Shown here: positions 5,878 through 54,798 of the stretch, in pieces | Position numbering within the stretch: position 1 is the first letter of the stretch | Layout of the letters: each line of letters starts with the position of its first letter | Assembly: GCA_903885565.1 (NCBI GenBank) | Contig: CAISJI010000216.1 | Span: 8,970 to 72,969, forward strand | Reading direction: 5' to 3' | Length of the DNA stretch: 64,000 nt | Origin: an uncultured Planctomycetaceae bacterium | Lineage (GTDB): Bacteria > Planctomycetota > Planctomycetia > Pirellulales > UBA1268 | Notes under the pieces: model-generated | The model's database searches: none | Told to the model about the DNA's origin: nothing | What the model saw: the letters and a program-made list of their open reading frames with translations, nothing else | Made by a program: the position numbers and the translations under genes

Positions 5878-5953
5878 TACGCGAGGCCCCAGCCTCCACC
5901 AGTGCCCCCGTCACAAGTGGCCCCGTCGCCTCGCACCTGCCGATCCCGCCGGC

Positions 5954-8331: not shown

Positions 8332-8387
8332 ACGCAGGGCGGCCGTCTCCACCGTTGCCGGGGGAAAGGTTGTTGGCAGCACTGGCG

Positions 8388-9503: not shown

Positions 9504-9813
9504 CTGAAGCGGGGCTTTCGCTGGGGAAAGGCTGCCGGCGGCGTGCGCAGGGGCGGGATTGTGGCGAGTGTCGGCCGCCGGGGCCAGCGAGAAATTCGGC
9601 CCAAAGAATGCGGGCGGAAGCTATTCGCCAGCCCGACGAGGCCCTGGCTGGCATTTCCTGGGGCGACAACCGCCGCACCCGGCTGCCGATCACTCTATCC
9701 ACAGCCCGCGAGACGCTGCGGGGGGGCGGGAGTCCGGTTTGGTCAAGAAACGGTGGTCGCATGCGGCGCATGTGCCGTCTGCCCCCGTTTGCCCACCTCT
9801 GGACGGCCCCGGC

Positions 9814-14190: not shown

Positions 14191-14288
14191 GCCGAGATGA
14201 TCCTGCAAAAGTGGGGAGAAAGAGATGGAGAACCCAGCCACACAGTGGCTGATACGGGAACGCCCTGGTTGGCCCGCGAGTTCCTGGA

Positions 14289-34000: not shown

Positions 34001-35236
34001 ATCGTTATCCCGGTCGGTGCGGCCGCGGGCCATCAGCCGCTCAGGGATTCTCATCTGATAACCGCGGTCGCCCGGATACCACCATGACATCGCCTGCAGT
34101 CCGGTGAAGCCTTCGCCCGGCGGATGGGCCCAGAAGATCCCCTCGCCGGTCACATCGAAGCCCCGGTCGCGCCAATACTGAAAAATCTTCCGCTGCGTCT
34201 CCACATATTTCTCAGGCGTCAGCCCGCCATGCTCGGGAAGGGCGTGCCAGGGGCTGACCGGTTTGCCATTATCGCGCTGGGCGATGAAGACATCGATGTG
34301 GATCGTGTGGCCATCCTTCAGTTCGGGCACCATCTCGATCAGCCGGTCGATCCGGCGCTGTGCCAGCCCCGCCTCCCATTCGCGGGGATAGACGACGTTG
34401 TACATGTCGTCGCCCACGATCTGGATGCCGGGCACGAGCAGCTTGCCCTCCTCATCCTTGGCCAGCAGATCCTGCTTGACATACTCATCCCACAGCGGGC
34501 TATGGCGATAGGCATCGACCATATTGATATGGAGGCTGACGGTGGTGTTGTAACGCCTTGCCTCGCGGATGAGCCAGCGCAGGCTTTCGAGCGCTGTGGC
34601 GTCATGGGGCAGTTTCAGCCGCGGGTTGACCTCGTCCCAGGCGGGGTAGCCATGGTCATGGCCCCCTTTCTGCCAGCCGACGAGGTAGACGATCTTGGGG
34701 ATGCCGCGGGTGAGGTTGTCGGTTTTGCGGATCACCTCCAGCGCCTCCTCAAACGTGCAGAGCACATCATGCGGCTTCTGGAAGAGCGGCTCTTTTGCCA
34801 GTCGCTCCACCGGTTCCCCTTCCATTCCCAGAAAGAGCTTTGTCACCAGACACTGGTGGTAATCGCGGTAGAAGGGGGCGACCACCACACTCGTGCTGGC
34901 GGAATGCTGCTTGCCATCCCGTTCCAAGGTCGCCTGAATGCGGGCGACGCCCCCTGCGCGGGGCAGAATCTGTCCGTTTTCAATGGTGACAACCTCCACG
35001 CCGCCGCTGGCCTCGGTGGTGGTGGCGGTGATTGCGGCGGCCGCCGGATCGATCGGCAGCCGTTGCCCAGAGGAGCTGACGGCAGTGAGGGTGATTCGCG
35101 CGGCCCCATGGGGATCGCGCACGAGTTGGAGCGTGGGCCTGTCGAGGGCGATCTCAAGGCGATCGATCGGCATGGGCTCTGCAGCCGATGCCGACAGCGT
35201 GGCCAGTGCTAGCAGGCTGCCGATCAGGTTCAGCAT
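31094..35236 (-). CDS. Secreted multidomain glycoside-hydrolase-like protein (GH101/endo-alpha-N-acetylgalactosaminidase-like + SGNH/GDSL hydrolase + large C-terminal domain)
   Basis: The signal-like N-terminus is MLNLIGSLLALATLSASAAEP. IVYLVGWQKGGHDHGYPAWDEV is GH101-like. FLGDSITSGW is SGNH block I. The final ~600 aa are an uncharacterised region. The track ORF start (35437) reads through repeat copy II, so I prefer 35236. Confidence 0.8.
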   Translation of the reverse strand: MLNLIGSLLALATLSASAAEPMPIDRLEIALDRPTLQLVRDPHGAARITLTAVSSSGQRLPIDPAAAAITATTTEASGGVEVVTIENGQILPRAGGVARIQATLERDGKQHSASTSVVVAPFYRDYHQCLVTKLFLGMEGEPVERLAKEPLFQKPHDVLCTFEEALEVIRKTDNLTRGIPKIVYLVGWQKGGHDHGYPAWDEVNPRLKLPHDATALESLRWLIREARRYNTTVSLHINMVDAYRHSPLWDEYVKQDLLAKDEEGKLLVPGIQIVGDDMYNVVYPREWEAGLAQRRIDRLIEMVPELKDGHTIHIDVFIAQRDNGKPVSPWHALPEHGGLTPEKYVETQRKIFQYWRDRGFDVTGEGIFWAHPPGEGFTGLQAMSWWYPGDRGYQMRIPERLMARGRTDRDNDGDFRFGSSMHAEEIWQRDKETMPGFLAMFCRTTLPWYFLSRHDRLSFKNDVLTYGDGVVARTEEGVRTIRQGDFVLRADDDLFVPALWNPREVIAWSNRGTPGKAWRLPADWQDVKAVDLYAITTAGCTLRQANLPVADGKVSLAMEQEEALSIVPAGIRPAGTVHVPGAADAAVPQRPNDEWCLRHGERVAEVRGLAGGPEILFLGDSITSGWRDIGREVWEQEFVPRRAASIGIAGSQTQHILWQLDHGAVDGLRPRLVVLMIGVNNIVASPHHSAADIARGIETIVARLREKLPESEILLLGTFPKDHSSASPDRLKIGEVNRLIANLADGGQVRFADVGLRLLRPDGTLPAEISPDGVHLSPAGYRLWADCLKDLVAAAAVPLPERFGLRSLPGHSGCAFTMYGVPGELAALEQLIAVMRKEKLGNGFDPGPGPAPHAKPLFDMLATTGWPVVSTCCADMQIDGGRCVLGAAEASAWEAMDREGRFTAVQLGEWGYYFHRLSHNEKWWRDVYGAEFDAFKHLMKPAGFSGYDQMPSGKRECYEAVERYFKHRCRDLLDRVISVNGHSHYEAYAGEWGARCIGLELGENIAFTQSKLAFARGASRQWQKPWSVQVSPWFAGACTTSGPLRSEGGMARGLDAGHSLSFYERLWLHSWFAGAAMVTPENSISIFFEQAAAPWTLTSHGRKAAEVYQFMQEHQRGVPFTPVAILLDHLAGYNGYMDKPWGILEPTPGDRQLRDLFDSQLFPGADHIHAPPNRDNPEAAYLRPTPYGEMFDVQLTGASAEMLASYQVLLLAGDIEFDDATLAKLRHSVEQGCTLLVSPAHREALGARFVELTSLSGGGRVEVLDPWTNPATGRPAAIATPRLEKLSGDLLPVEVTGDAIQYQVNRTASGWVIELINNAGIAKKPNEPVTVDPAAVAHITLKPRGGFREAREWRSNRTFPSAPSLAIDIAPGQSAFVEWR

Positions 35237-35327
35237 CGCTGGATGCGATGCCCGTCGACCGGGGAAACCCTCGACGTTTCCACCGGTCGACCGAGTGGAA
35301 AAAGTGCCGGGACGACTTTTTCTACGG
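35231..35327 (+). repeat. 98-bp double-hairpin repeat, copy II (5' of the GH gene start, minus-strand upstream region)
   Basis: Aligns base-for-base with 5000..5097 apart from scattered substitutions. Hairpin A is GTCGACCGGGGAAAC/GTTTCCACCGGTCGAC. Hairpin B is GTGGAAAAAGT/ACTTTTTCTAC with one G-U pair. Confidence 0.85.
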
Positions 35328-35732: not shown

Positions 35733-38700
35733 ATGAAAAAGCGAATCAACATCCAGTTTCTGGCGATCATCGCTGGTTTGCTGGTGATCGCCACAGTTGG
35801 CGTGTTCGTGATTCACCGGATTCAGGTGCGGAGGAACATCGACGGTCTTGCCCGACTGGCGCGGGAACGCGTGGCGGAAGGCAAGGCAGCCGAGGCCATT
35901 GGATTCTACGAGCGCTATCTGGCCTTTCATCCTCAGGATCGGGAAGCGACCGCGGAATGGGGCGACCTTCTCCTGGCGGAGGCCGGGGCCCCGACCGCCA
36001 GCGGCCGTGTTCGGAAACGGGCGGCCGCGGGGATGGAGAAGGCGGTGAACAGCAATCCCGGTGACGCTGTCAGGCGGTTGAAGCTGGCGGAGTTTCTCCT
36101 GAAAAATGGTCGGTTTGAGGATGCCCTCGACCATGTGCAGATGCTGCGGAAAAATCTCACCGCCGCCGAAAACCCGCTGGCGGCGCATGCGAGCGAAACG
36201 CCGAAGACTCTGGCCGAAATGATCCCGGGCCGAGTGGAGGAAAAGAGGATTGATCTCTCCACGAATCAGGAAGCAGCCCACCTGGATTTGATGGCTGCCA
36301 AGGCTCACGCTCGGCTGGGGAATTTTGAGGAATCGGCCGCCTTTGCCAGCGATCTCGTGGGCTTCAATCTGGAGAAGCGGGAGTTTGATTCCGAATGGAA
36401 AACGCTGCCTGAATGCGGCGAGGCCTACGAACTGTTGGCGGCGCTCCTGGAGCAGCGGCTCAAGGATCCAGCTGCGGCCGATCGCGTGATGAAACAGTGG
36501 ATCAAGACGCTCCCGGAGGATGGCAAGGCCCGACTGGCTGCGGCGCAGTGGAGCCTTGGTCATGGGGATACGGAAGCGGCCGAGCAGTATGTGGCCAAGG
36601 CCGCAGAAATGCTCCCCAACAATGCGGATGTGCTCTTCACTTCATTCCAGATCGCCCTGAGCGAAAAAAACTACGAGCGAGCCGCCACGATCATCCAAGA
36701 TGCAAAGGGGCGGTTCCCAGAGCGGGTGCTTCGCGCCAGAGCCCTGCTGGCGCTCAAGCAGGAGAACACCGACGAGGCAGTGAAGGTGCTGGAAGGGGGT
36801 GTGGAGAAGTCGGCCAACCCGGAGCAACTCCTCGTGATGCTCTGCGATGTTCTGATCCAGACCAACCGGCTCGATGATGCCGGAAAGAAGATCGATCAGT
36901 TGCGGGAACTTGCCGGTGCGAAAAGCCCACCGGTCATGCTCTTTGACGTTCGGCTCCTGATGGCCAAAGGCCGGTGGCTGGAGGCGAAGCAGAAGCTGGA
37001 GAGCATGCGCGACAACTTGGCAGATTCCAACGATCTGCTCCGGCAGGTTGACCTGATGTTGGCGGAGTGCCTCAAGAATCTGGGGCAGTTTGACGAGCAG
37101 CTCGAGGTGGACAGGCGGGTGGAGGCGGAGGATACGGAGTCGTTCATAGGAAAGGCGCGAATTGCCGCCTCTCTGGCGGCCTCCGGGCGGACCGACGAGG
37201 CTCTGGCAGAATACGAAGCCATCGTGGCTTCGGTTCCTCAGGAATCACTTGCCACGATGCCGCAGGTGTGGGGGCCTCTGCTGCAGCTCCGGGCGGGTAA
37301 GCAGCTCAATCGCAAAAAGCTCGACCGCGACTGGTCGAGCGTCGATGCGCTGCTTGGTCTTCTCCTCCGCATGGACGCAATTGCGGATGACGACAAGGCG
37401 ATTCTGGAGGCCAAGGTTCGTTTTCAGAAAGGGGAGGTGACTTCCGCCATCGAGGCGATGGAAGCGGCCCTGCGGAAGACCCCAGGCAATCAGCGGCTCG
37501 CTGCCAGCTTCGTGGGCATGCTTTTGGAAGCCAATCAGGTCGACAGGGCATCCGAGGCGCTCGCTGCGTTCCCAGCGAGTGATGAGACCCGCCTCGAGCG
37601 GATGTTGTTGGAAGCCCGTCTTATTGAGAAACAAACCAAAGAAGATACGACGCAGCAACTGGCCCGACTCGAGAAGGATGCGCTCGCTCTTCCGCCACCT
37701 CGGGCGCAGGAAGTGCTGGCTGTGCTGGCATCGATTCATGCTGCCGGCGGACGCCAGGCCGAGACAGAGCGGCTATGGAAGCAGATGCTTGAGGCGAATC
37801 CGGGCGATTTGCGGATCCTGCTGGCCCTGTTTGGGATGGCGCGCGAGCAGCAGGATCTCGACAAGGCCACGCGCTATGCCGCGGAGATCGGCCAGTCGTC
37901 GGGCTCCGACAGCGCGCAGGCCAAAACGGCCCAAGCGGCACTCCTGCTCCTGCAGGTGGCGGTCGCCCAGCAGGCACGGACCGAAGGGCCGAAGCTCTCT
38001 GCGGAGGAGAGCGGCAAGCTCGATAAGGCCTACGACATGCTTGTCGACGCGGAGAACGACCGCCCCGATTGGCTCCAGACACAACAGCTCTTCGCCGATA
38101 TCGAGCGCCTGCGTGGCAAACCCACCGCCGCCATCGAACGGCTGCAGAAGGTTGTCACGGCCGGCACGCGGAATCCAGCGGTTATCAAACAGTTGGCGAA
38201 TCTGCTCTATGCGGCCGGGCGGCTGGATGAGGCGGCCCGCACGGTTGACATGCTCAGTGCGTCGGATATCTCGGGCATGGAGCGACTTTTCGCCGATCGG
38301 GCGGCCAGTGAAGGTAAATTCGCCGAGGCGCTGGCGCTGGCGCAGAAGATCGTGTCGCCTGAGTCGAAGAATGTGGGCGAGTTGGTTTGGCTGGCGCAGC
38401 TCTCCGCTCGGGCCGGCCAGGGGAAGCAGGCCGAGGGGCTCTTTGCCCGGGTGTTGGAGCTCTCCCCTGATCAGCCGGTGGCATGGCTGGCGGTGGCCTC
38501 GGCACAGGTGCAGGCGGGGAATCGTGAGGGGGCCGGGCAGACCGCCTCGCGGGCCCGCGAGGTGCTTTCGAGTCCGCAGCGGGAATTGGTCTCGGCGCAG
38601 ATCCGCGAAATGCTCGGCGAAGTCGGTATGGCGGCGGAAAACTATGCGGCAGCCGTGGCAGCGGCGCCTGACGATCCGGCGGTGGCGAGGCAGCGGGCGG

Positions 38701-40139
38701 AATTCCTGATCCGCCGGGGACAGTCGAAGCTTGCTCAGGAGGAGCTGGAACGCATGATCGGCCAGGGTGGGGCAGCCTCGACGCCGCAGAAGACCTGGGC
38801 TCGGCGAACCTTGGCTGGGCTGGCGGCAGAAAGTGGCAGCTACAAGGAGATGTGGAAGGCTCGGGCGCTGCTCAAGCCGGCCGCCGGCGACGGTGAGGAT
38901 ATCCAGAGGCAGAATCAGGGGCTCGAGGTGGCATTGCTCGCCGCCCGGCCTGAGCCAGCCTCTTGGCTGGCAGCTCTCGATCTGGCCGACACAATGCGAA
39001 TCCAGGGACCGCTCCCCGGCAATCTGCGCCTGTTGCTGTCTCAGATACTCGAGAAACTCGATCGTTGGCAGGAGGCGCGCACTGAGCTGATCGATCTGGC
39101 CGGTGCGCCGAATGCGGCGGTGCAATTGCAGGCATTTGTCACCGAGCGACTTCTCGCCCACGGCGAAATCGCCAGTGCAAAAACCGCCTTGGAAAAGCTG
39201 CAGGCGACCGATCCCGATTCGCCGGCCACGCTGGCCATTGAGGCCCGGGTGGCGCTGGCCGCCGGCGATAGGGCAGCCGCCGTGGCGGTGGCTCGGCGGT
39301 TGATGCCGACAGCCGATGGCCCGCCCCAACGCGACGAACAGTTGGCTGCCACCGCGGCGCTGATGGAGGAACTCACGTTTGAGAAGGCTGCCGAGCAGGT
39401 GTTCGACCGATATGCCGAGCAGTCGCCGAAGGGGATGGTGGAGCGGGCGAAATTTCTGGCGCGGCAGAAGCGGGTCGATGAGGCCCTGACGCGTCTTGGT
39501 GAAGGGTGGGGAAAACTGCCTCCTGCTCAGATCATTCAGATTGCCCTCCAGCTTGTGCAGGGGGAAGGCAGGCCTGCCAATCCCGAGTTGGTAGCCGCGC
39601 TGGAAGCCTTGATCGACCGGGCGCGGCAGGAGGATCCGGGCTCAGCTGTGCTGCTGATGACTGAGGCGGGTGCCAAGGAATTACTGGAGCAGCGCGAGGA
39701 TGCCATGCGGATCTACCGTTCGTTGCTGGAGGGGGATCGGTTGCCCCCCATGCAGGCGGCGCTGATCTCCAATAACCTCGCTTACAATCTGCTGGCCAAT
39801 CCCAGCCCCAGCGACGTGGATGAGGCAAAAAGACTGATCGACTCTGCCATCGTGGAGCTGGGGCCGAATCCGGAACTGCTCGACACGCGGGCGCTGGTCT
39901 GGCTGGCGGCGGGAGAGCCGCAGAAGGCAATCGCGGATTTAAAAGAAACGCTCGTGCTGCCGACAGCGCAAAAGCAACTCCATCTGGCGGTTGCGTATCT
40001 GGTTTCTAAAAACAGTCCGAATGCCCGCATCGCCTTCGAAAAGGCAGCCAAGCTGGGACTCGATCCCGCCAAGCTTGATCCCCAGGACAGGGCGATCCTG
40101 GAGAAGCTGGAAGCAGCCTTGGGCAAGCGGAATCGGTGA
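35733..40139 (+). CDS. Giant membrane-anchored TPR-repeat protein (paralogue 2)
   Basis: 1,468 aa. The N-terminal TM segment is INIQFLAIIAGLLVIATVGVFVI. It is collinear with 9814..14190. For example, PQVWGPLLQLRAGKQLN...DRDWSSV matches PQVWQPLLQLRANQQLK...NRDWSQV. The C-terminal LHLAVAYLVSKN...LDPQDRAILEKLEAAL matches LHLACALAADKD...LEPDDRERMKALEALL. Confidence 0.85.
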   Translation: MKKRINIQFLAIIAGLLVIATVGVFVIHRIQVRRNIDGLARLARERVAEGKAAEAIGFYERYLAFHPQDREATAEWGDLLLAEAGAPTASGRVRKRAAAGMEKAVNSNPGDAVRRLKLAEFLLKNGRFEDALDHVQMLRKNLTAAENPLAAHASETPKTLAEMIPGRVEEKRIDLSTNQEAAHLDLMAAKAHARLGNFEESAAFASDLVGFNLEKREFDSEWKTLPECGEAYELLAALLEQRLKDPAAADRVMKQWIKTLPEDGKARLAAAQWSLGHGDTEAAEQYVAKAAEMLPNNADVLFTSFQIALSEKNYERAATIIQDAKGRFPERVLRARALLALKQENTDEAVKVLEGGVEKSANPEQLLVMLCDVLIQTNRLDDAGKKIDQLRELAGAKSPPVMLFDVRLLMAKGRWLEAKQKLESMRDNLADSNDLLRQVDLMLAECLKNLGQFDEQLEVDRRVEAEDTESFIGKARIAASLAASGRTDEALAEYEAIVASVPQESLATMPQVWGPLLQLRAGKQLNRKKLDRDWSSVDALLGLLLRMDAIADDDKAILEAKVRFQKGEVTSAIEAMEAALRKTPGNQRLAASFVGMLLEANQVDRASEALAAFPASDETRLERMLLEARLIEKQTKEDTTQQLARLEKDALALPPPRAQEVLAVLASIHAAGGRQAETERLWKQMLEANPGDLRILLALFGMAREQQDLDKATRYAAEIGQSSGSDSAQAKTAQAALLLLQVAVAQQARTEGPKLSAEESGKLDKAYDMLVDAENDRPDWLQTQQLFADIERLRGKPTAAIERLQKVVTAGTRNPAVIKQLANLLYAAGRLDEAARTVDMLSASDISGMERLFADRAASEGKFAEALALAQKIVSPESKNVGELVWLAQLSARAGQGKQAEGLFARVLELSPDQPVAWLAVASAQVQAGNREGAGQTASRAREVLSSPQRELVSAQIREMLGEVGMAAENYAAAVAAAPDDPAVARQRAEFLIRRGQSKLAQEELERMIGQGGAASTPQKTWARRTLAGLAAESGSYKEMWKARALLKPAAGDGEDIQRQNQGLEVALLAARPEPASWLAALDLADTMRIQGPLPGNLRLLLSQILEKLDRWQEARTELIDLAGAPNAAVQLQAFVTERLLAHGEIASAKTALEKLQATDPDSPATLAIEARVALAAGDRAAAVAVARRLMPTADGPPQRDEQLAATAALMEELTFEKAAEQVFDRYAEQSPKGMVERAKFLARQKRVDEALTRLGEGWGKLPPAQIIQIALQLVQGEGRPANPELVAALEALIDRARQEDPGSAVLLMTEAGAKELLEQREDAMRIYRSLLEGDRLPPMQAALISNNLAYNLLANPSPSDVDEAKRLIDSAIVELGPNPELLDTRALVWLAAGEPQKAIADLKETLVLPTAQKQLHLAVAYLVSKNSPNARIAFEKAAKLGLDPAKLDPQDRAILEKLEAALGKRNR

Positions 40140-40284: not shown

Positions 40285-40358
40285 TGGGCAAAGAGGGACT
40301 CGAACCCCCAACCCCCTCGGTGTAAGCGAGGTGCTCTAACCAATTGAGCTATTTGCAC
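40285..40358 (-). tRNA. tRNA-Val (anticodon UAC)
   Basis: I folded the minus strand by hand as a 74-nt cloverleaf. The D stem is GCTC/GAGC. The anticodon stem is CCTCG/CGAGG with loop CTTACAC (UAC). The variable loop has 5 nt. The T arm is GGGGG-TTCGAGT-CCCTC. The discriminator is A and no CCA is encoded. Acceptor pair 2:71 is a U-C mismatch. Confidence 0.85.
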
Positions 40359-44450: not shown

Positions 44451-45155
44451 GTGATGTCAGACGAACCGTTGGCCTTCTCTCCAGAACAGTTTTCCGGCTT
44501 GGCTCGGGTTTTCCCGCTGCCGAATATGGTGATGTTTCCCCACGTCATGCAGGCCCTCCATATCTTTGAGCCCCGCTACCGGCAACTGCTTGAGGAATCG
44601 CTCGCGACCGATCGGCTGATTGCCCTTGGCGTGCTCGCCCCCGGCTGGGAATCAGACTACGAGGGACGTCCGGCCCTCCATCCCACCGCCTGCCTCTGTC
44701 GCGTGGCAACGCACCAGCGCACCGATCAGGGGACCTCGAATGTGCTTCTGCTGGGGGTGCGCCGACTGCGGCTGGGCCGCGAACTCCCCAGCCAGGAAAC
44801 CGGGAAACTGTTCCGGGTGGTGGAGGCGGAGATCCTCGAGGACGCCGCCCCCAGCGACATCACAGCCAGCGCCGCGGCGGGGCTCCAGCGGGAACTGCTC
44901 GCCGCCTTCAAGCGGGCGATACCGAAGATGCCCGATGCCTACGACCAGCTCGATCAGTTGCTGGGCAATCAGATCTCCCTCGGCATGCTTAGCGACATCG
45001 TCTCCTACACGATCGAACTCGACATGAACTGGAAGCTGCGGCTGTTGGCGGAATGCGATGTGGTGCGCCGCACGCACCTGCTGCTGGAGGCATTGTCAGG
45101 GCGGACGCCAGGCACCCCCGGCCGGCCGTTCCCGCCGCTCTTTAGCCAGAACTGA
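44451..45155 (+). CDS. LON substrate-binding (Lon N-terminal) domain protein
   Basis: VFPLPNMVMFPHVMQALHIFEPRYRQLL is the classic Lon N-domain opening. At 234 aa it has no AAA or protease domain. Confidence 0.8.
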   Translation: MMSDEPLAFSPEQFSGLARVFPLPNMVMFPHVMQALHIFEPRYRQLLEESLATDRLIALGVLAPGWESDYEGRPALHPTACLCRVATHQRTDQGTSNVLLLGVRRLRLGRELPSQETGKLFRVVEAEILEDAAPSDITASAAAGLQRELLAAFKRAIPKMPDAYDQLDQLLGNQISLGMLSDIVSYTIELDMNWKLRLLAECDVVRRTHLLLEALSGRTPGTPGRPFPPLFSQN

Positions 45156-45161
45156 AATTTA

Positions 45162-45367
45162 CGCCCGCAGGGCCATCCATGGCCCCTGCAGGCTTGGGCA
45201 GGCGAAGGCGAAGCCAAGGTTCGCCTAGCCTGCCGGGGCCCGCCGTCCGGGCGGGTTGGCTTCGCGCCCGCAGGGCCATCCATGGCCCCTGCAGGCTTGG
45301 GGCATTCGGAGTCACAGCCGAGGTGTGCCTCGAATGCAAGTGCCCGCCGTCCGGGCGGGCGGCGGGC
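45162..45367 (+). repeat. Two diverged tandem ~103-bp units, each made of a 38-bp palindromic module plus the 18-bp module GCCCGCCGTCCGGGCGGG
   Basis: CGCCCGCAGGGCCATCCATGGCCCCTGCAGGCTTGGG occurs at 45162-45198 and 45265-45301. GCCCGCCGTCCGGGCGGG occurs at 45238-45255 and 45342-45359. The spacing is 103-104 nt in both cases and the sequence between modules has diverged. Confidence 0.8.
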
Positions 45368-47048: not shown

Positions 47049-47546
47049 ATGCACATCACATTTGCCTGCCCTGCCTGCGCTGCCACTGTGGCGATGAGGG
47101 GTGTCGAATCGGCCACGGCGCTTGAATGCTCCGCCTGCCGGGCCCGCCTGCCGATTCCGGCTGATGCTCTGGTGGCCGGCCCCGACGGTGAGCCGCGGCT
47201 CCAGCGGTGTTTGGTCTGCCCCAGCACGGAGCTTTTTCTGCGCAAGGATTTTCCGCAGCGGCTGGGGGTGGGGATCGTGGTGGCAGGACTGGCGGCGAGC
47301 TGCGTGACCTGGGCTTGGCGAGAGCTGCTGATGACATTCGCCATTCTCTTTGGCACTGCCCTGATCGACGTGGTGCTCTACTTCTGCGTGCCCGATTGCC
47401 TGACCTGCTATCGCTGCGGCGCCCGCTACAGTGGGGATGGCAGCGAAACGTTTGGCCCCTTTGATCTGGAGACGCACGAAAAACACCGGCAGCAGCTAGC
47501 CCGCCTGCAGGAACAGGCCAGCCGAAAACCAGCCGCTCATGCCTGA
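47049..47546 (+). CDS. Zinc-ribbon membrane protein, unknown function
   Basis: Three Cys pairs are present: CPAC...CSAC, CLVC and CLTCYRC. Two TM segments lie between them. Confidence 0.55.
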   Translation: MHITFACPACAATVAMRGVESATALECSACRARLPIPADALVAGPDGEPRLQRCLVCPSTELFLRKDFPQRLGVGIVVAGLAASCVTWAWRELLMTFAILFGTALIDVVLYFCVPDCLTCYRCGARYSGDGSETFGPFDLETHEKHRQQLARLQEQASRKPAAHA

Positions 47547-47577
47547 ATGCCCCACCCCAACAGGTCAGTCTGTCGCC

Positions 47578-47838
47578 ATGCCCGTTCCTTCCAGCAGCAC
47601 TCTCACCGTCGCCCTCTTTGCCGGCATGGCCGAACTGGCCGGCGCTCGCAGCGTGACTGTGGCTTGGAGCGGGGGCAGCGTGGAAGACCTCCGACGCGTG
47701 CTGGGAGTGGCCCACCCGAAGTTGATCCCCTTGCTTGAGCGCAGCGCCGTGGCCGTGGCGGGAAAATATGCCGCCGACACGCAGCAGGTGGCGACCGGAA
47801 GCGAGGTGGCGATCATTCCTCCGGTGAGCGGAGGGTGA
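47578..47838 (+). CDS. moaD: Molybdopterin synthase sulfur-carrier subunit MoaD
   Basis: 86 aa ending in ...VAIIPPVSGG (ubiquitin-like fold, C-terminal Gly-Gly). It overlaps the moaE start by 4 nt. Confidence 0.8.
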   Translation: MPVPSSSTLTVALFAGMAELAGARSVTVAWSGGSVEDLRRVLGVAHPKLIPLLERSAVAVAGKYAADTQQVATGSEVAIIPPVSGG

Positions 47839-48320
47839 CGATGTCGAGCCGATCACCGCAGCCTGAAATGCTCGTGCGCCGCCCCGTCGATGGCCAACGC
47901 CTGCTTGAGCAGGTGGCCGATCAGGACGCGGGAGCCAACATTCTGTTTGTCGGCACCACGCGTCGCACCACCGGCAGCGAACTGACCGTGGGGCTCGATT
48001 ACGAGGCCCACGAACCGATGGCAGCGGCGGCCCTTGAGCGACTCAAAGTGGAGGCGATTGAGCGCTTCGCCCTGACGTCCTGCGCGATCGAGCACCGGCT
48101 CGGCTGGGTGCCGGCAGGGGAGGCGAGCATTGCCGTGGCGCTCAGTTCGCCGCATCGCCGCGAGGCCTTTGCCGCGGTGGAATGGCTCATGGAACGGATC
48201 AAGGCGGAGGTGCCGATCTGGAAATGCGAGGCGGGAGAGCATGGCTCGCGAGAGTGGGCGCATCCCGGCGACATGCGCGGCGTGGCCGCTGGCCCGGCGG
48301 CGACAGGAGGCCCCTCATGA
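47835..48320 (+). CDS. moaE: Molybdopterin synthase catalytic subunit MoaE
   Basis: GANILFVGTTRR...EAHEPMA...IEHRLGWVPAGEASIAVALSSPHRREAF...IKAEVPIWK is present. Confidence 0.85.
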   Translation: MTMSSRSPQPEMLVRRPVDGQRLLEQVADQDAGANILFVGTTRRTTGSELTVGLDYEAHEPMAAAALERLKVEAIERFALTSCAIEHRLGWVPAGEASIAVALSSPHRREAFAAVEWLMERIKAEVPIWKCEAGEHGSREWAHPGDMRGVAAGPAATGGPS

Positions 48321-49366
48321 CCGACGCCTCCCTTCCACCAGCAGTCAGCCAGACAATGCCCCCGGCCTCTGCCTTGGTCGATCGCTTCGGGCGGGTGCAT
48401 ACCGACCTGCGTTTGAGCGTGACTGACCGCTGCACGCTGCGCTGCACCTACTGCATGCCGCTCGATGCGACGTTTCGGCCGCGGGAGGAACTGCTCACCG
48501 ATGACGAATGCATCCGGGTGGCAACTGTCGCCGCGCGGCTGGGCGTTCGCTCGATCCGCGTGACCGGCGGCGAGCCGCTGTTGCGTCCTGGGCTCGCCGG
48601 GCTGGTGGCCCGGTTGGTGGCGCTTCCCGGTATGGAAGAGGTGGCGCTGACCACCAACGGTCTCCTGCTGGCCCAGCAGGCAGAGGGGCTGTTTGCTGCC
48701 GGCCTGAGCCGGTTGAATGTCAGCCTCGATGCCCTTTCGGAAGAAGTGTTTGAACGAGTGGCCCGGGCGGGCGGGCTGGAGCGGGTGCTCGCCGGCTTGG
48801 CGGAGGCGAAGCGGATTGGCTTCCGGGCGATCCGCATCAATGCCGTTTCGATCCGGGGCCTCACCGAATCGGAGATCGTGCCGCTGGCCAGCTTCTGCCG
48901 TCGCGAGGGGTTTCATCTGCGTTTCATCGAATTCATGCCGCTCGATGCCGACAGCACATGGTCGAACGAGAAAGTGCTCTCCGGGGCCGAGGTGCGCGAG
49001 ATCCTGGAGCGGGAAGTGGGGGCAGTCTTACCCCGGCCGCGCACCGATCCCAGCCAGCCCGCCGTCGATTTTGACTTCGCCGATGGGGCCGGCAGCGTCG
49101 GCTTCATCGATCCGGTGAGCGCTCCCTTCTGCGGCCAATGCGACCGGCTGCGGCTGACGGCCGACGGCCAGCTGCGCAACTGTCTGTTTTCCACAGTTGA
49201 ATGGGATGCCCGCGGGCTGCTTCGCCGCGGCGGTGCCCCTCTGGATATTGATGGCGCGCTTGCAACGATGCTCCGCGACTGCGTGCAGGCCAAGCATGCG
49301 GCCCATGGCATCGGTGCTGCCGATTTCCACAAGCCCCAGCGCGCCATGTATCAGATCGGGGGCTGA
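48317..49366 (+). CDS. moaA: GTP 3',8-cyclase MoaA (radical SAM)
   Basis: LRLSVTDRCTLRCTYCMP (CxxxCxxC) is present, with the C-terminal cluster FCGQCDRLRLTADGQLRNCLF. An ATGA overlap joins it to the moaE stop. Confidence 0.9.
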   Translation: MTDASLPPAVSQTMPPASALVDRFGRVHTDLRLSVTDRCTLRCTYCMPLDATFRPREELLTDDECIRVATVAARLGVRSIRVTGGEPLLRPGLAGLVARLVALPGMEEVALTTNGLLLAQQAEGLFAAGLSRLNVSLDALSEEVFERVARAGGLERVLAGLAEAKRIGFRAIRINAVSIRGLTESEIVPLASFCRREGFHLRFIEFMPLDADSTWSNEKVLSGAEVREILEREVGAVLPRPRTDPSQPAVDFDFADGAGSVGFIDPVSAPFCGQCDRLRLTADGQLRNCLFSTVEWDARGLLRRGGAPLDIDGALATMLRDCVQAKHAAHGIGAADFHKPQRAMYQIGG

Positions 49367-49367
49367 G

Positions 49368-50594
49368 ATGGATTCCCAGCCTGTGCGCCGGTATCTCGAT
49401 AGCGCCGCCACAAGCTGGCCGAAGCCTGAGGCTGTGCTGGCGGCCTCAGCTGAAGCCGCCCGGAGTGTGGGGGCCGCGGCTGGCCGGGGCACCCATCAGG
49501 CGGCCCAGGCTGCCGATCGAATGCGCCGGCTGGCCCGCCGCCGCGCGGCAGACCTGCTCGGCGGTGTTGATCCATCCCGGGTGGCCCTCCCTGCCGGGGG
49601 CACGCTCGGCCTCAATATGGCGATCCACGGGGTGCTCCAGCCGGGCGACCGGGTGATCGCCACCGCCGCCGACCACAACGCCTCGCTGCGGACGCTGCAC
49701 TTTCTGGCACAGCGGGAGGAGATCGAGCTCACAGTGGTCCCTTGTGACAGCCGGGGCTGGGTCGATCCGGCGGCGATCGAGCGGGCGTGGCGGCCGGCCA
49801 CCAGATTGGTGGTCTGTTCCCATGCTGCGAATGTGACCGGCATGGTGCAAGATGCGGCTGCCATGGCGAATATCGCCCACGGCCGGGGGGGGCTGTTGCT
49901 CCTCGATGCCGCGCAGACGCTCGGTCAGATTCCCTGCGACGTCCCTGGCTACGGGGCCGACATCGTCGTGGCGCCAGCCCACAAATGGCTGCAGGGGCCT
50001 TCCGGCGCGGCAATTCTCTGGGTAAGGGAAGGGATCGATCTGGTTCCATTGGTGCAGGGGGGCACCGGCACCCAGAGCGACTCTCTGGAAATGCCCGAGG
50101 CGTTCACTGACCGCATGGAGCCTGGCACCCCCGATCTCCCGGCGCTGGCTGGCCTGACCGCCGCCGTCGACTGGCTCGAGCGATTTTCAATTTCCGCTGT
50201 GGCAGCCCATTGCAGAAGTCTGGCGCAGGCTGCTGCAGATGGCCTGCGTGCTGTGGCTGGAGTGCGCGTGATCGGCGGAGGGCAGGTGGGGGTGCCGATT
50301 GTGAGTTTTACAGCCGAGGGCTATGATCCGGCCGAGCTTGCGCTGCTCTTGGAGCAGTTGGCGGGCATCGAGGCGCGGGCTGGCTATCACTGCGCAGCCC
50401 TGGTGCACGAGCACCTCTCCACGGCGGCCGGCGGCACGCTGCGGGTGAGCTTTGGACCACACAACACCGATGAGGATGTGGCGATCTTGGTGGAAACCAT
50501 GGGTCAGCTCCTCCAGAGAAGCCTTTCGAGTTCCGTGGCGGGCGCTTTAGGGAGCGACCTGTCTTCCCGATCAATCCCCCCTTGGCAGAAATAA
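49368..50594 (+). CDS. Class V aminotransferase-fold cysteine desulfurase (SufS/CsdA-like)
   Basis: YLDSAATSWP, VVAPAHKWLQGPSG (PLP Lys) and ARAGYHCA (active-site Cys loop, compare RxGHHCA) are present. It starts 1 nt after the moaA stop. Confidence 0.85.
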   Translation: MDSQPVRRYLDSAATSWPKPEAVLAASAEAARSVGAAAGRGTHQAAQAADRMRRLARRRAADLLGGVDPSRVALPAGGTLGLNMAIHGVLQPGDRVIATAADHNASLRTLHFLAQREEIELTVVPCDSRGWVDPAAIERAWRPATRLVVCSHAANVTGMVQDAAAMANIAHGRGGLLLLDAAQTLGQIPCDVPGYGADIVVAPAHKWLQGPSGAAILWVREGIDLVPLVQGGTGTQSDSLEMPEAFTDRMEPGTPDLPALAGLTAAVDWLERFSISAVAAHCRSLAQAAADGLRAVAGVRVIGGGQVGVPIVSFTAEGYDPAELALLLEQLAGIEARAGYHCAALVHEHLSTAAGGTLRVSFGPHNTDEDVAILVETMGQLLQRSLSSSVAGALGSDLSSRSIPPWQK

Positions 50595-50601
50595 ACGGAC
50601 C

Positions 50602-51027
50602 ATGGCAGGCATCAAAAAAGAGGTTTGGTATTCGGGCGGGCTGCGCTTTGAGTGCACGCAGTGTGGCGATTGCTGCTCCGGGTCTGAGGGATATGTGTGG
50701 GTGAATCAGGAGGAGATCAACGCCATGGCCAGCCGGGTGGGGCTGGAGCCGAAGGTGTTTGAGGAGAAGTATGTGAAGCGGGTGGGGGTGCGGCGATCGC
50801 TGAAGGAGCGGCCGGGTGGCGACTGCGTGTTGCTCGATGAGCAGACCCGCAAGTGCACCGCCTATGAGGAGCGGCCGCGGCAGTGCAAGACCTGGCCTTT
50901 TTGGGATTCCAACATCCGCACGCCTGAGGCCTGGGAAGAGACGGCCCAAGCCTGTCCGGGCTGCAACAATGGCAACCTCGTGCCGCTGGAAACGATCATC
51001 GAGCAGGCCTCCAAGATCCGGATCTGA
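50602..51027 (+). CDS. YkgJ-family (UPF0153) CxxCxxCC Fe-S/zinc cluster protein
   Basis: FECTQCGDCCSG and ...CTAYEERPRQCKTWPFW are present. Confidence 0.8.
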   Translation: MAGIKKEVWYSGGLRFECTQCGDCCSGSEGYVWVNQEEINAMASRVGLEPKVFEEKYVKRVGVRRSLKERPGGDCVLLDEQTRKCTAYEERPRQCKTWPFWDSNIRTPEAWEETAQACPGCNNGNLVPLETIIEQASKIRI

Positions 51028-51071
51028 ACCGGTATCGGCTAGCGTGCCGAGCACGCACGCACGCTAAGCGC

Positions 51072-51241
51072 GACTGGCCGCCGGGAGGGCGGCCTCACAG
51101 AAGCGGGCGGAGGCCCGCCAAGCGAAAACGGGCATGATGCCCGTGTTTCGCGTGAAGCGGCCCGCCGGGAGGGCGGCCTCACAGAAGCGGGCGGAGGCCC
51201 GCCAAGCGAAAACGGGCATGATGCCCGTGTTTCGCGTGAAG
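51072..51241 (+). repeat. 84-bp three-hairpin repeat, two tandem copies
   Basis: The copies are 51072-51157 and 51158-51241 (period 84). The core is CCGCCGGGAGGGCGGCCTCACAGAAGCGGGCGGAGGCCCGCCAAGCGAAAACGGGCATGATGCCCGTGTTTCGCGTGAAG. The hairpins are CCGCC-gggag-GGCGG, GCGGGC-ggag-GCCCGC and ACGGGCA-tga-TGCCCGT. Confidence 0.9.
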
Positions 51242-51409
51242 ACGACACGCAAAAGCTACGCAGGGGCTGCCAAGCCTCGCTAGCATCGTGTACAAACGTC
51301 CTACTCCTTCGGGTGGTCAAATCACCAACGCACAAGCCGTCGAAGACGGTCATTCGATTGATCGCCCGCACAGTGATCTCGTAACCGGGTTCCCTTCTCC
51401 GGAAAAAAC

Positions 51410-53038
51410 ATGGCGCTGAATCGCTGGCAGACTCTGCCGAAAAACCAACTCAATCGTCTTTTGGACCGCAGCCATACGCTGCAGGGCGCCGTTCTTGTTG
51501 GGTTAGACGGCCTGTTAGTTGAGATGCAGGCAAGGGCAATGAATGTCTATGCTGAAGGTATCCCGTGGGGATTGGCCGTCCGGATTTCCGGAATGGCAAA
51601 GGGCACTGTTCGCGAATCGCTCGATCGCATCAGCGGAGCATTTCGGGCGGCCGGTATTCCTGACTCCCAGGCGGAAATCTTGATCAACCTAACTCCGCCG
51701 GAGATTCCAAAGGATGGAACATGGCTGGACCTTCCCCTTGCGTTGATCATGCTGCAGGCGACCGGTTATCTGCCAGATCTGACCGAAGACAAGGAAAAGA
51801 ACTTTGTTGTTGTCGGCGAACTTGGTCTGCACGGAGACATTCGCCGTATTCCCGGCGTGCTTTCGTTGGCTTATTTGGCAAAAGCTGGACAGAAACTCAT
51901 TGTTCCCTTCGGCAACGAGAAGGAAGCCGCTTTGATAATGGCCAAGCCAGGCCATGACGGATGTGGAGTCTTTGCTGCCAAGAAACTAATGGAAGTAATC
52001 GATTTTTTCTCTGGCCGAGGAAAACTGGACAACGCGCTGAGCCAGCGCATCTCGTTCGAAAGCGTGGTGGAGAAGGCGATTGATTTTGGGAAAATACGCG
52101 GCCAGAGTGAGGCCAAGGACGCAGCCATCATTGCGGCCGCCGGTGGCCATAACTTATTGCTCATTGGCCCGCCCGGAGAGGGAAAATCGCTGCTGGCGAG
52201 CGCAATGCCAGGAATTCTTCCCCGATTGACGGACCCTGAAAAAGTTCAGCTGACACGGATCTACTCGGCCGCAGGGAAGCTGGATCGAGATGGGCAAGCC
52301 GTCACGCGACGGCCGCTGCGAACCGTTCACCACACGGCCTCCAAGCAGTCCATCATCGGCGGAGGTTCTGGAGTGCCTCGGCCCGGTGAGATCACCATGG
52401 CCCACTTGGGAGTGCTTTTTCTCGACGAAATCGCCGAGTTTCCAGCGGCAACTCTTGAGGCTATGCGACAGCCTCTTGAGGCCGGAGAAATCACCGTAAC
52501 CCGGGTTGCAGGAAGCTTTACGTATCCCTGCCGATTCGCGCTTCTGGCGGCCATGAATCCATGCCCGTGCGGCTATTACGGCACGGAGCGCTGCAGTTGC
52601 AAGCCGGATGCGGTTCGACGCTACCTCGGCAAAATCAGCGGCCCGATTTCAGATCGCATCGATTTGCAGGTCACTCTCAGGCCGTTATCCACGGACGAGC
52701 GGTTTGCTGCTACGGAGGACGGACAGTCTCCGAAATTGCGCGGCCATGTGGAGGCGGCGAGGCTCCGGCAGGCGGAGCGGTTTAGCGGCACGGACATTCC
52801 GTTCAATGCGGCGATACCGGGCGGCGCCGTCGTGGAATACTGCCAGTTCGGGGAAGCGGCTATGAAACACTACAGGCAACTGATCGAAGAGAACACGCTG
52901 TCAACCCGATCAATGGATCGATTAGCCAAGGTGGCCCGAACCGTAGCCGACTTAGCGGGCAGCGATTCGATTGAGCCGAAGCATGTCGCCCAAGCCGCCA
53001 AGTACGTCATCGGAGGAGTGCTCCGAGAGCAGTATTGA
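51410..53038 (+). CDS. comM: YifB/ComM family ATPase (Mg-chelatase-like, MCM-related AAA+)
   Basis: 542 aa. It has a Lon-like N-domain, Walker A LLLIGPPGEGKSLLA, Walker B GVLFLDEIAEF, the Zn/Cys cluster NPCPCGYYGTERCSC and a C-terminal SMDRLAKVARTVADLAG. Confidence 0.9.
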   Translation: MALNRWQTLPKNQLNRLLDRSHTLQGAVLVGLDGLLVEMQARAMNVYAEGIPWGLAVRISGMAKGTVRESLDRISGAFRAAGIPDSQAEILINLTPPEIPKDGTWLDLPLALIMLQATGYLPDLTEDKEKNFVVVGELGLHGDIRRIPGVLSLAYLAKAGQKLIVPFGNEKEAALIMAKPGHDGCGVFAAKKLMEVIDFFSGRGKLDNALSQRISFESVVEKAIDFGKIRGQSEAKDAAIIAAAGGHNLLLIGPPGEGKSLLASAMPGILPRLTDPEKVQLTRIYSAAGKLDRDGQAVTRRPLRTVHHTASKQSIIGGGSGVPRPGEITMAHLGVLFLDEIAEFPAATLEAMRQPLEAGEITVTRVAGSFTYPCRFALLAAMNPCPCGYYGTERCSCKPDAVRRYLGKISGPISDRIDLQVTLRPLSTDERFAATEDGQSPKLRGHVEAARLRQAERFSGTDIPFNAAIPGGAVVEYCQFGEAAMKHYRQLIEENTLSTRSMDRLAKVARTVADLAGSDSIEPKHVAQAAKYVIGGVLREQY

Positions 53039-53039
53039 G

Positions 53040-53672
53040 ATGCAAACGCGACATATTATCGGTATCGCAGGGCTTGTGATCGCCCTTCTTGGAACGATCT
53101 TCGACCTCATCGCGGTAACGGCATTTGCCCATTTTGTTCTCGCCACAGGCATTCTGCTGGCGATGGTCGGTTTTCGGGCGGAGCTAGCCCCGCTGCTCGC
53201 AACTTGGACAAAAGCGTTGTTGCAATGTTTGTGGAGTCTTGGCCGTTGCCTTGCCCGTCTCTTTCAGTTCTTGTTCATCAGGGCATCTGGCGGGCGGAAA
53301 CGCGGATCACTGCACCGATGGAATGACCTCGGCGATTTCGATTTTGAGGTCGTCGGAGAATCGAATTACCAGCCAGCGTTGACTGCTGTAACTGGCGGCC
53401 GTATCGCCGGGTCCGAGGGAATTTTTTGCGAAGCGGAACTGGTTCCCGAATCAAACAACAAATTCGATTCCATGGCAGTCGCGGTATCCGTCAACGGCAG
53501 AAAAGTTGGCTACTTGGCGCGGAGTGACGCCAGAGAATTCCGGGATCGGCTGGCAGATTCTGGCCTGACCGGCCAAGTAACGGTCTGCCAAGCAATGATT
53601 CGCGGCGGAGGCCGCCGCCGCGACGGTGAGGCAATGAGCTACGGCATCTGGCTCGACATTGAGCCATTCTGA
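53040..53672 (+). CDS. Membrane-anchored HIRAN-domain protein
   Basis: 210 aa. Two or three N-terminal TM segments are present (IIGIAGLVIALLGTIFDLIAV..., ATGILLAMVGF). The HIRAN-like core is FEVVGESNYQ...LVPESNNKFDSMAVAVSVNGRKVGYLARSDAREF. The ATG lies 1 nt after the comM stop. Confidence 0.75.
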   Translation: MQTRHIIGIAGLVIALLGTIFDLIAVTAFAHFVLATGILLAMVGFRAELAPLLATWTKALLQCLWSLGRCLARLFQFLFIRASGGRKRGSLHRWNDLGDFDFEVVGESNYQPALTAVTGGRIAGSEGIFCEAELVPESNNKFDSMAVAVSVNGRKVGYLARSDAREFRDRLADSGLTGQVTVCQAMIRGGGRRRDGEAMSYGIWLDIEPF

Positions 53673-53756
53673 CGTGCGGTGAACTCTAGGCGGCCTGCAG
53701 TTGGCTCGGCGCCTAGCTTCGTCACGGCTCACGCGCTGAGAGAGGGCGCCACGCGG

Positions 53757-53842
53757 GACTGGCCGCCGGGAGGGCGGCCTCACAGAAGCGGGCGGAGGCC
53801 CGCCAAGCGAAAACGGGCAGGATGCCCGTGTTTCGCGTGAAG
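53757..53842 (+). repeat. 84-bp three-hairpin repeat, third copy (same orientation)
   Basis: Identical to the copies at 51072-51241 except for one substitution, which falls in the loop of hairpin 3 (tga to gga). It is immediately followed by GGGCCATGGATGGCCC (53846-53861), the inverted form of the 45170/45273 palindrome core. Confidence 0.9.
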
Positions 53843-53873
53843 CTAGGGCCATGGATGGCCCTTCAGGCGCTAT

Positions 53874-54092
53874 TTACAGTATCCCGCCGTGCGTGCGGTA
53901 GGCGGTCATGTGCGACGGCTGATCGAGGAACCAGATGCGTTCCCACTCGTCGGTGATCGCCCGCAGATCTTCGGAGGTGAAGATGAGTTGCTGGGCCCGG
54001 CGGACCGGATCGCCCGAATACATCGGGATGAGGCAGCCGGTGCTCATCGGGAGCGCCACGGCCGCCAGCAGAATCCAGCACAGTTTCCTCAT
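53874..54092 (-). CDS. Small lipoprotein (hypothetical)
   Basis: MRKLCWILLAAVALPMSTGC is a lipobox-like signal. GGAGGA lies 7 nt upstream of the ATG at 54092. The track ORF is longer, running to 54284. Confidence 0.55.
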   Translation of the reverse strand: MRKLCWILLAAVALPMSTGCLIPMYSGDPVRRAQQLIFTSEDLRAITDEWERIWFLDQPSHMTAYRTHGGIL

Positions 54093-54393
54093 CACTACGT
54101 CCTCCATGACGGACTCAACCAACTTGCTTGAACGACCCGGCGATATCCGCCAGTCGATTCTCTTGCCTGCCTGGCCGGGACATCCTGTCCGCAACCGCTC
54201 ATCCACCCACTGCCAAAACCGATCTAGTACCACGCGGCTCGTCTGAGCCGCAATCCATCGTCTGTCGCGGGGACCTCGGATCACCAGCCTCGCGAAACCC
54301 CCGCACCCACTCTCACTCCGCCAGTCTGCCCAAACTCTTGTTCGATATTTTTTTCAGCCTGTTGAGGCGGCTGGCAGTTGCTTCAGCCTCGAC

Positions 54394-54798
54394 TCATTCC
54401 TCTGCTGTTCGATCGGTTCCTTCCGGCCGGGGGGCGGTTGGTTCCTCGGTTGCTCCCTGTCCGGGGGGCGAGTCCTCTACTGAGGGCGTCTCCTTGTCCC
54501 GGCGATAGTCGCGAACCTTGGCCTCCATCTCCTTGCCCGGCTTGAACGAAACCACGCATTTGGCCTGCACCGGCACCTTTTCTCCGGTGCGCGGATTGCG
54601 GGCCATTCGGGCATCCCGCTGTTTGATTTGGAACACTCCGAAATTTCTCAGCTCGATCCTGCCCTCCCGCACCAACGCATCGATCAGAGCATCGAAGGTG
54701 CGTTGCACCAGTTCCTTGGTGCGAAGTTGGGGAAGATCGAGTTGTTCGGCAATGGTCCGGACAATATCTTTCTTGGTCACGGTTCCGGTACTCCGCAC
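54394..54798 (-). CDS. HU/IHF-family DNA-binding protein with extended Pro/Glu-rich C-terminal tail
   Basis: TKKDIVRTIAEQL...ELRNFGVFQIKQRDARMARNPRTGEKVPVQAKCVVSFKPGKEM is the HU/IHF fold. About 35 extra residues follow (RRDKETPSVEDSPPGQGATEEPTAPRPEGTDRTAEE). Confidence 0.85.
   Translation of the reverse strand: MRSTGTVTKKDIVRTIAEQLDLPQLRTKELVQRTFDALIDALVREGRIELRNFGVFQIKQRDARMARNPRTGEKVPVQAKCVVSFKPGKEMEAKVRDYRRDKETPSVEDSPPGQGATEEPTAPRPEGTDRTAEE

Follow-up and report, generated by a model that had tools for sequence, protein, structure and literature searches.

A strain-variable comM–HIRAN gene cassette bounded by structured direct repeats in an uncultured planctomycete

Several described systems place genes between direct repeats or scatter small palindromic units between genes, and each resembles in part the locus reported here, a comM–HIRAN gene cassette flanked by copies of a repeat (R) in a 64,000-nt stretch of DNA from an uncultured Planctomycetaceae bacterium (GenBank assembly GCA_903885565.1, contig CAISJI010000216.1, positions 8,970–72,969; hereafter, the window). 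In direct-repeat-flanked islets, which undergo Campbell-type recombination, the deletion allele consists of one repeat without cargo, tandem copy number varies, and no dedicated recombinase is present, all as in the planctomycete locus; the repeat in islets, however, is an insertion sequence, a ribosomal RNA operon, or a gene duplicate, whereas R is a structured, conserved, and apparently locus-specific unit of 84 nt. Integron cassettes and clusters of attC sites lacking integron integrases (CALINs) share with our locus structured direct repeats (~60–140 nt) between modules, variability among strains, and the lack of a nearby integrase. By contrast, the planctomycete locus has no R''/R' cores, a three-hairpin fold, mixed gene orientations, a very small array, a cassette with its own 167-nt leader, and R copies that were not found elsewhere. 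Repetitive extragenic palindromes (REP), bacterial interspersed mosaic elements (BIME), and repeats resembling miniature inverted-repeat transposable elements (MITEs) are, like R, small GC-rich palindromic intergenic units that occur in tandem and carry terminator-like hairpins, but they are dispersed and R apparently is not, within the sequence examined. Finally, comM is a conserved gene in other bacteria and a chromosomal target of islands, including the AbaR-type insertions of Acinetobacter; comM is tied to mobile DNA in both cases, as the target there and as the cargo in the window.

A repeat finder identified three direct copies of R in the window in a 97-nt register. R1 (51062–51158, plus strand) and R2 (51146–51242, plus strand; unit 51162–51241) form a head-to-tail pair whose period is 84 nt, and R3 (53747–53843, plus strand) is 96% identical to R1 over 97 nt. 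A covariance model trained on 11 distinct copies and run with filters off found the same three, with scores of 118, 111, and 77 bits (111 for R1 and 117.5 for R3), and its next-best match in the window reached 23 bits at coordinates inside a coding open reading frame (ORF). A 44-nt core of R occurred three times in the window with no more than one mismatch and was absent from 100 shuffled sequences, and self-BLAST of the window revealed no further copy. Between R2 and R3 lie a non-coding leader of 167 nt (51243–51409, plus strand), in which no sigma-70-like site was found; an intact comM/yifB gene (51410–53038, plus strand) whose 542-residue product is a Mg-chelatase-like AAA+ ATPase; a gene for a 210-residue HIRAN protein (53040–53672, plus strand), whose ATG is separated from the stop codon of comM by a single base; and a spacer of 74 nt from the HIRAN stop codon to R3 (53673–53746).

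The initial annotation had described a low-GC segment of 2.5 kb, bounded exactly by three direct-repeat copies of period 84, that carries just a comM-like gene and a HIRAN gene and has no integrase, transposase, or border tRNA. Most of this description held. Among ~45 ORFs scanned across the 64 kb, we found no integrase, transposase, or recombinase, and no tRNA lies at the cassette borders, the sole tRNA of the window being tRNA-Val at 40285–40358. In sliding-window comparisons, 51251–53750 had the lowest GC of 247 windows of 2.5 kb (0.572 versus a mean of 0.647, standard deviation (SD) 0.020; ~3.8 SD below) and also the largest tetranucleotide distance (0.0288 versus a mean of 0.0165, SD 0.0026; ~4.7 SD above). 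Windows of 500 nt had GC values of 0.53–0.61 inside the block versus 0.65–0.71 at 46–50 kb and 55–58 kb, and comM and the HIRAN gene had the two lowest values of GC at third codon positions (GC3; 0.62 and 0.61) among ~43 ORFs, most of which fell at 0.72–0.84. The exactness of the boundaries stood in part: the compositional extreme lies between the repeats and the GC boundary is sharp at R2, but the contrast at the right side is not as absolute, and low GC (0.57–0.62) was also found beyond the cassette in ykgJ and in the lipoprotein and HU genes at 54.0–55.2 kb, with 500-nt windows at 54.2–55.2 kb dipping to 0.57–0.60. Because these flanking genes are native despite their mildly low GC, the compositional contrast is sharpest, rather than absolute, at the repeats.

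Four alleles were found at this slot when the window was compared with contig L006 and with ~30 further loci, the latter collected through YkgJ variants 98–99% identical to that of the window and a ComM variant at least 90% identical. The window itself represents allele C, in which ykgJ is followed by a spacer, R1 and R2, comM–HIRAN, R3, and the lipoprotein–HU genes. In allele A (L029–L033; 24 contigs read), the most common among the relatives, the order is ykgJ, a PF00144 serine-hydrolase gene on the minus strand, R, comM–HIRAN, R, and lipoprotein–HU. Allele B (L009, L010, L019–L021, and L024, for which both flanks were seen) is organized as allele A without comM–HIRAN and contains one to three R copies; L022, L023, and L025–L028 are listed under this allele as well, their contigs having the hydrolase and ending before the right flank. 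Allele D (L006) consists of ykgJ, the spacer, one R, and lipoprotein–HU. The hydrolase and comM–HIRAN modules were recovered in all four combinations of presence and absence, and the hydrolase, whose gene is opposite in orientation to comM–HIRAN and whose module is likewise GC-poor (58%), is a second, independently variable module at the slot. Four loci with small ORFs (L011, L015, L017, and L018) resembled a fifth allele, but this was rejected, as scaffold gaps or duplications had interrupted the hydrolase allele in them. The hydrolase, which is encoded in alleles A and B and not in the window, is a secreted protein of 517 residues with a C-terminal extension (L029, 5945–7498); it has a weak DUF302 match in that extension and falls far under the cutoffs for class C beta-lactamases.

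The boundaries between alleles could be placed precisely. On the left, homology to relatives ends at 51027/51028 (BLAST end-points for L009–L033), one base beyond the stop codon of ykgJ. The 34-nt spacer that follows in the window (51028–51061) is common, with a 17-nt indel, only to allele D, and alleles A and B have the 1.9-kb hydrolase module in its place. On the right, homology restarts at 53746, approximately the first base of R3, wherever the contig reaches that far; the exception is L024, which has a truncated R and in which homology restarts at 53786. An R copy at the R3 position was present in every in-group allele, and the allele B and D loci contained no trace of window positions 51243–53745. 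A single-repeat empty site, which the initial annotation had suggested looking for in relatives, therefore exists in L006, with its one R, beside the allele-B loci with one to three copies. Outside the cassette, L006 was 92.5% identical to the window at 47251–51157 and 92.8% identical at 53846–54794.

Two outgroups polarize these differences. In both, ykgJ directly adjoins lipoprotein–HU with neither R nor cargo, and the gene order moaE, moaA, aminotransferase, ykgJ, lipoprotein, HU, pyrD, trpS, acpS, topA is kept. The spacer between ykgJ and the lipoprotein gene is 137 nt long in the first outgroup (YkgJ 84% identical) and 87 nt long in the second (YkgJ 80% identical; TARA contigs, GCA_001757085.1), and neither spacer contains R or an R-like sequence. 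Because the slot is empty in both outgroups, the block is an insertion in the ancestor of one clade; the ancestral slot was empty, with R, the hydrolase module, and comM–HIRAN all having come into the in-group lineage. Within the clade, the cassette of the window was 96.9% identical to that of allele A (97% for the leader) and the flanks were 96.1–97.4% identical. Since cassette divergence equals flank divergence, inheritance within the clade was probably vertical, and the cassette is old there, common to the closest relatives by descent and neither recent nor private. The initial annotation had reasoned that the same genes at the same locus in relatives would point to ancient residence; this pattern was found within the clade, in allele A, and not beyond it, in the outgroups. 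The rooted tree of the left flank had the topology (D,(C,(A,B))) and the order in the right-flank tree differed, a discordance that indicates recombination among strains.

Based upon these results, we consider it reasonably probable that the block is a horizontally acquired, strain-variable accessory module that is removed by recombination, likely homologous, between R copies. First, R copies were 96–100% identical to one another over 80–97 nt, and 80–97 bp of such identity is ample for RecA-type recombination and above minimal homology. Second, R is retained in alleles B and D and nothing of the cassette survives there, as expected for a pop-out between adequate direct repeats. Third, R arrays varied among loci from one to three tandem copies, and the sequence at the tandem junction was closely similar in the window (GTGAAGC followed by GGCCCGCC) and in L010 and L021 (GTGAAGC followed by AGCCCGCC). 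Finally, a foreign origin of the module is made plausible by a 73%-identical HIRAN–ComM fusion in a low-GC tRNA-Val island of relatives, described below.

In the scheme that we propose, the ancestor of a single planctomycete clade, of species level, would have gained the module in the spacer between ykgJ and lipoprotein–HU, and inheritance would have been vertical since. Recombination between R copies, most likely of the RecA-type homologous kind, would excise a 2.6-kb unit precisely, leaving one R and no scar, and the same process would allow arrays to grow and shrink between one and three copies. A circular or transformed copy of the cassette could re-enter any R-bearing locus, and spread between strains could occur by this reverse reaction or by recombination in the conserved flanks after DNA uptake, which would fit the discordant flank trees. 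For the initial step, the least demanding idea is insertion into a pre-existing R–R array, and such arrays exist in relatives. The initial annotation had taken the repeats to be the footprint of an insertion, a reading that our results mostly support. Given the empty outgroups, the block was inserted, but the comM-less alleles within the clade may equally be R × R deletions, and the repeats are not proven insertion footprints. The mechanism is most likely ordinary recombination between repeats. The locus provides, in a planctomycete population that has not been cultivated, a presence/absence polymorphism of a gene cassette whose boundaries are exact to the base, seen in environmental assemblies and with its ancestral state fixed by two outgroups, and it would be a useful case of short structured repeats that make accessory genes easily lost or regained without a dedicated mobility gene.

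Several observations weigh against this reading or limit it. A gain followed by loss in allele B is as parsimonious as an early gain with losses in alleles B and D; under either history, the cassette has been lost precisely, from R to R, at least once in nature. Without known parental repeats, the deletion alleles gave no information on crossover positions. R, with a GC of 72%, is host-like and yet lies on both sides of foreign DNA, which no model explains. Between the same strains, R diverged by 1–3% and neighboring DNA by 3–7%, and this better conservation of R than of neutral flanks hints at a function beyond passive homology. Allele D is less secure than the others, as it is represented by a single 5-kb contig (L006). 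In addition, repeats of ~90 nt can make metagenome assemblers skip the loop between them.

This last point is part of a highly improbable explanation in which the gene pair is native with gene-specific low GC and the comM-less contigs are assembly artefacts caused by the repeats. The closest relatives do have the same genes at the same locus, and the native HU and ykgJ genes are likewise GC-poor, but these genes are missing from the locus in two outgroups and the nearest ComM homologues beyond the clade occur in unrelated contexts. Skipping of the inter-repeat loop is unlikely for allele B because its loci come from separate assemblies, each one that reaches the right flank lacking the cassette; because they have their own flank single-nucleotide polymorphisms and their own arrays of R and of a second repeat, S (discussed below); and because every allele-A contig read retains the cassette. 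One allele-B locus (L019) contains a run of Ns.

R is predicted to be strongly structured. On either strand, each copy was predicted to fold into three GC-rich hairpins and a 10-bp closing outer stem, minimum-free-energy and centroid structures agreed on three separate hairpins on both strands, and the z-scores of the two strands relative to shuffled sequences were –3.6 and –4.8. The ends of R (CACGCGNGAC ... GTTTCGCGTG) are complementary, with palindromes internal to the repeat. In all three window copies, the third hairpin is a predicted intrinsic terminator on the minus strand, and R3 lies 30 nt downstream of the lipoprotein gene, where R appears to supply a terminator-like hairpin behind the lipoprotein–HU operon. 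An Rfam search with R returned no family at E ≤ 1. Across 12 distinct copies, 8 of 79 core columns varied, and 5 of these 8 were unpaired (5 of 30 unpaired columns versus 3 of 49 paired columns), a lean toward loops that is too small for significance and that includes no covariation to test.

Structure of this strength, together with conservation above that of the flanks and variable positions that are mostly unpaired, is compatible with an alternative in which R is a dedicated site, similar to attC or att, for a recombinase encoded elsewhere and the slot is an integron-like array of hydrolase plus R, comM–HIRAN plus R, and R alone. Each module does have R at its right end, all alleles share a left boundary one base after the ykgJ stop codon, the two modules assort in all four combinations, and a missing local recombinase could be explained by action in trans. 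We nevertheless regard this alternative as unlikely. A regular-expression search for attC cores (RYYYAAC/GTTRRRY), covering both strands of 50950–53950 and of every R copy, gave no match, the nearest equivalents in R being GCGCGAC and GTTTCGC, and the predicted fold of three hairpins in an outer stem differs from the single bulged hairpin of attC sites. Neither IntI nor a long series of cassettes in the same orientation was found in the window; only one to three R copies were seen, at one locus alone, the hydrolase gene is reversed, and the 64 kb contain no integrase. Moreover, the head-to-tail arrays, with their 84-nt period, and the S/R hybrids, in which the two elements meet at a common 17-nt hairpin, look like products of homology. 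Slightly less likely is a broader proposal in which R would be the folded-DNA site of a small, integron-like planctomycete cassette platform of a new type, with its recombinase in trans, and ComM–HIRAN would be a self-contained mobile module for DNA-end processing or defense.

Within everything searchable, R was seen solely at this slot. Outside the slot, the covariance model found no copy, either in the rest of the window or across ~195 kb from other loci, a set that includes further versions of this locus. Peptides encoded by R in four open reading frames matched 3 proteins among 5.8 billion, all of them spurious ORFs from this locus. An exact 22-mer of R had no match in 185,579 species genomes, a collection that lacks this lineage, given that a protein-guided scan of it with the neighboring aminotransferase matched just an unrelated Pseudomonadales sequence, and had one genuine match in a scan of Joint Genome Institute metagenomes, namely contig L006; a second match in that scan (L005) was rejected as a chance match inside a gene. 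A scan of viral contigs for R gave no match, and searches of phage and plasmid DNA with the cassette returned nothing relevant. This distribution argues against an idea that we consider improbable, namely that R is a mobile element of the MITE or REP type, copies of which landed independently to the left and right of a gene pair already in place and bracket it by coincidence. The complementary ends and internal palindromes of R are consistent with such an element, as is the presence in the same genome of a second, insertion-polymorphic palindromic family (S). However, the many dispersed copies typical of this class were absent from the window, from the loci of relatives, and from translated ORFs, no target-site duplication was evident at the R junctions read, and neither R nor the gene pair is present in the outgroups, which means that the genes were not resident.

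S is a small palindromic intergenic element, present in the window as a tandem pair upstream of folE (45162–45359; 83% identical), and relatives also differ from the window across 45154–45355. A fragment of S lies directly beyond R3 (53846–53870), and L006, L009, and L020 have an extra S insertion of ~95 nt just to the right of R. S and R share the hairpin GCCGCC-NGGA-GGGCGGC, at which the two are joined in one hybrid copy of L010. A derivation of the 5′ leader of the cassette from S was rejected, as the alignment score was not above that of shuffled sequences.

Outside the clade, relatives of this ComM occur among other neighbors. An 82%-identical homologue lies on a contig of ~58% GC, a 72%-identical homologue lies among transporters, and a group with 76% identity lies beside toxin–antitoxin, restriction–modification, and AbiE islands. 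In two loci of the last group (L001, 2593–12071; L041, 1–10628), comM is surrounded by ResIII/methyltransferase/HNH genes, an SLFN-like helicase, ParE, PIN, AbiEii, and DUF4160/DUF2442, and L001 also contains a large serine recombinase and a separate C-terminal fragment of ComM, a context that suggests island insertion at comM. Several further clusters with 72–75% identity to ComM consist of proteins of 749–810 residues (most 793–810) with a HIRAN domain at the N terminus. One such fusion of 796 residues (73% identical) occurs in L002 and L003, and also in L004, within a ~5.95-kb block (L002 region 4129–10156) that has a GC of 58% in a genome of ~70% GC. This block directly follows tRNA-Val(tac), the last 21 nt of which are repeated exactly at its far end; in L002, a second exact direct repeat of 23 nt lies just inside both ends. 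A 193-residue ORF beside the tRNA in L002 and L003 weakly matches the C-terminal part of Phage_integrase. The flanks of the island are syntenic with 21–44 kb of the window, in which tRNA-Val has no second copy of its 3′ end. The tRNA-Val island with its fusion and the operon in the window thus place this ComM lineage on mobile DNA among related planctomycetes and connect it to HIRAN in two different architectures.

The tRNA-Val island resembles the cassette in having low-GC ComM–HIRAN cargo between direct repeats in a high-GC planctomycete genome; the cassette differs in having no bordering tRNA, no integrase remnant, no tRNA-derived repeats, and a separate HIRAN gene downstream. A decayed island, whose integrase would have been lost and whose former attL and attR sites would now be seen as copies of R, would account for low-GC DNA between direct repeats and for the occurrence of a HIRAN–ComM homologue in an island with terminal repeats and a weak integrase match. 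Direct repeats around deviant DNA and an empty site were indeed found, but the outgroup spacers that would correspond to attB contain no R-like sequence, and no integrase was found in the window, whose only tRNA is the tRNA-Val at 40285–40358, where an integrase at one end and a tRNA, transfer-messenger RNA, or conserved gene as target would be expected. R is GC-rich and host-like, unlike the cargo; att repeats of 84–97 nt that also form tandem arrays would be unusual; and the non-coding remainder of the cassette amounts to just 167 + 74 nt, without an integrase remnant. A decayed island is doubtful and fits less well than an accessory module removed through recombination between R copies.

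Both cassette genes belong to recognizable families. ComM matched TIGR00368 over its full length (420.3 bits; cutoff 362.4) and contained the Pfam domains PF13541 (ChlI), PF01078 (Mg_chelatase), and PF13335 (C-terminal). The HIRAN protein scored 24.0–24.3 bits against PF08797, just below the cutoff of 24.7, but 59 of its 61 closest family members matched this domain, within a family of 3,157 representatives. An AlphaFold model built with 61 homologues had a mean pLDDT (predicted local distance difference test) of 91.8 and consisted of three N-terminal helices, which are a probable membrane anchor, followed by a β-rich domain. The best matches of this domain in the PDB were the bacterial structure 3k2y and the HLTF HIRAN structures 4s0n, 6kcs, and 4xzg, with probabilities of ~1.0 and target-normalized TM-scores of just 0.40–0.50. 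A PADLOC search returned weak generic AAA matches and nothing else. The two genes appear to be translationally coupled. A frameshifted ComM–HIRAN fusion in the window was rejected, as HIRAN is N-terminal in the fused relatives. Between the window and allele A, comM had 44 synonymous and 5 nonsynonymous codon differences and is thus under purifying selection. For the HIRAN gene (53040–53672 versus L029, 9631–10263), the counts were 8 synonymous and 10 nonsynonymous, and this difference from comM suggests relaxed or diversifying selection.

ComM and YifB are members of a hexameric AAA+ DNA helicase family, ComM acts as a branch-migration helicase in natural transformation, and HIRAN domains bind 3′ DNA ends. 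A literature search on HIRAN with ComM or YifB found no description of a link between them. The pair has a counterpart in HLTF and Rad5, which combine a HIRAN binder of 3′ ends with a motor for branched DNA, and the fusions of relatives have HIRAN at the N terminus, as does HLTF; the motor of HLTF and Rad5, however, is of the SNF2 type, whereas here it is a YifB/ComM protein, AAA+ and MCM-like, and HIRAN is a separate protein with predicted membrane helices. By analogy with HLTF and Rad5 and given the role of ComM in transformation, it may be that the HIRAN protein takes hold of a 3′ DNA end and delivers it to ComM, here at the membrane. The repeated linkage of ComM and HIRAN, as a coupled pair in the window and as fusions in relatives, mirrors the HIRAN-plus-motor design and suggests HIRAN as a testable partner of ComM. 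If this ComM works in transformation as it does elsewhere, then the capacity for transformation may vary among strains within a species. This unreported association and the conserved, structured repeat R are, in our view, the features of most note at the locus.

The genes that frame the slot are conserved. On the left, the ykgJ-type gene (50602–51027, plus strand; PF03692) encodes a CxxCxxCC protein. The right flank opens with the gene for a lipoprotein-like protein of 72 residues (53874–54092, minus strand), which is 99.5% identical to its allele-A counterpart and was among the genes called in every relative and in the two outgroups. It is followed by a gene for an HU/IHF-type DNA-binding protein (54394–54798, minus strand; GC3 0.66), which is present in the outgroups and is native.

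Elsewhere in the window, a direct repeat of 118 nt with 85.6% identity lies inside large ORFs (4979–5096 and 35210–35327), and a bacteriorhodopsin-like protein is encoded at 448–1284 on the minus strand (PF01036, E = 4e-41). Two proteins rich in tetratricopeptide repeats, of ~1,470 residues each, are encoded at 9814–14241 (minus strand) and 35733–40139 (plus strand). The second of these genes adjoins tRNA-Val and lies in the interval that, in L002, is occupied by the HIRAN–ComM island.

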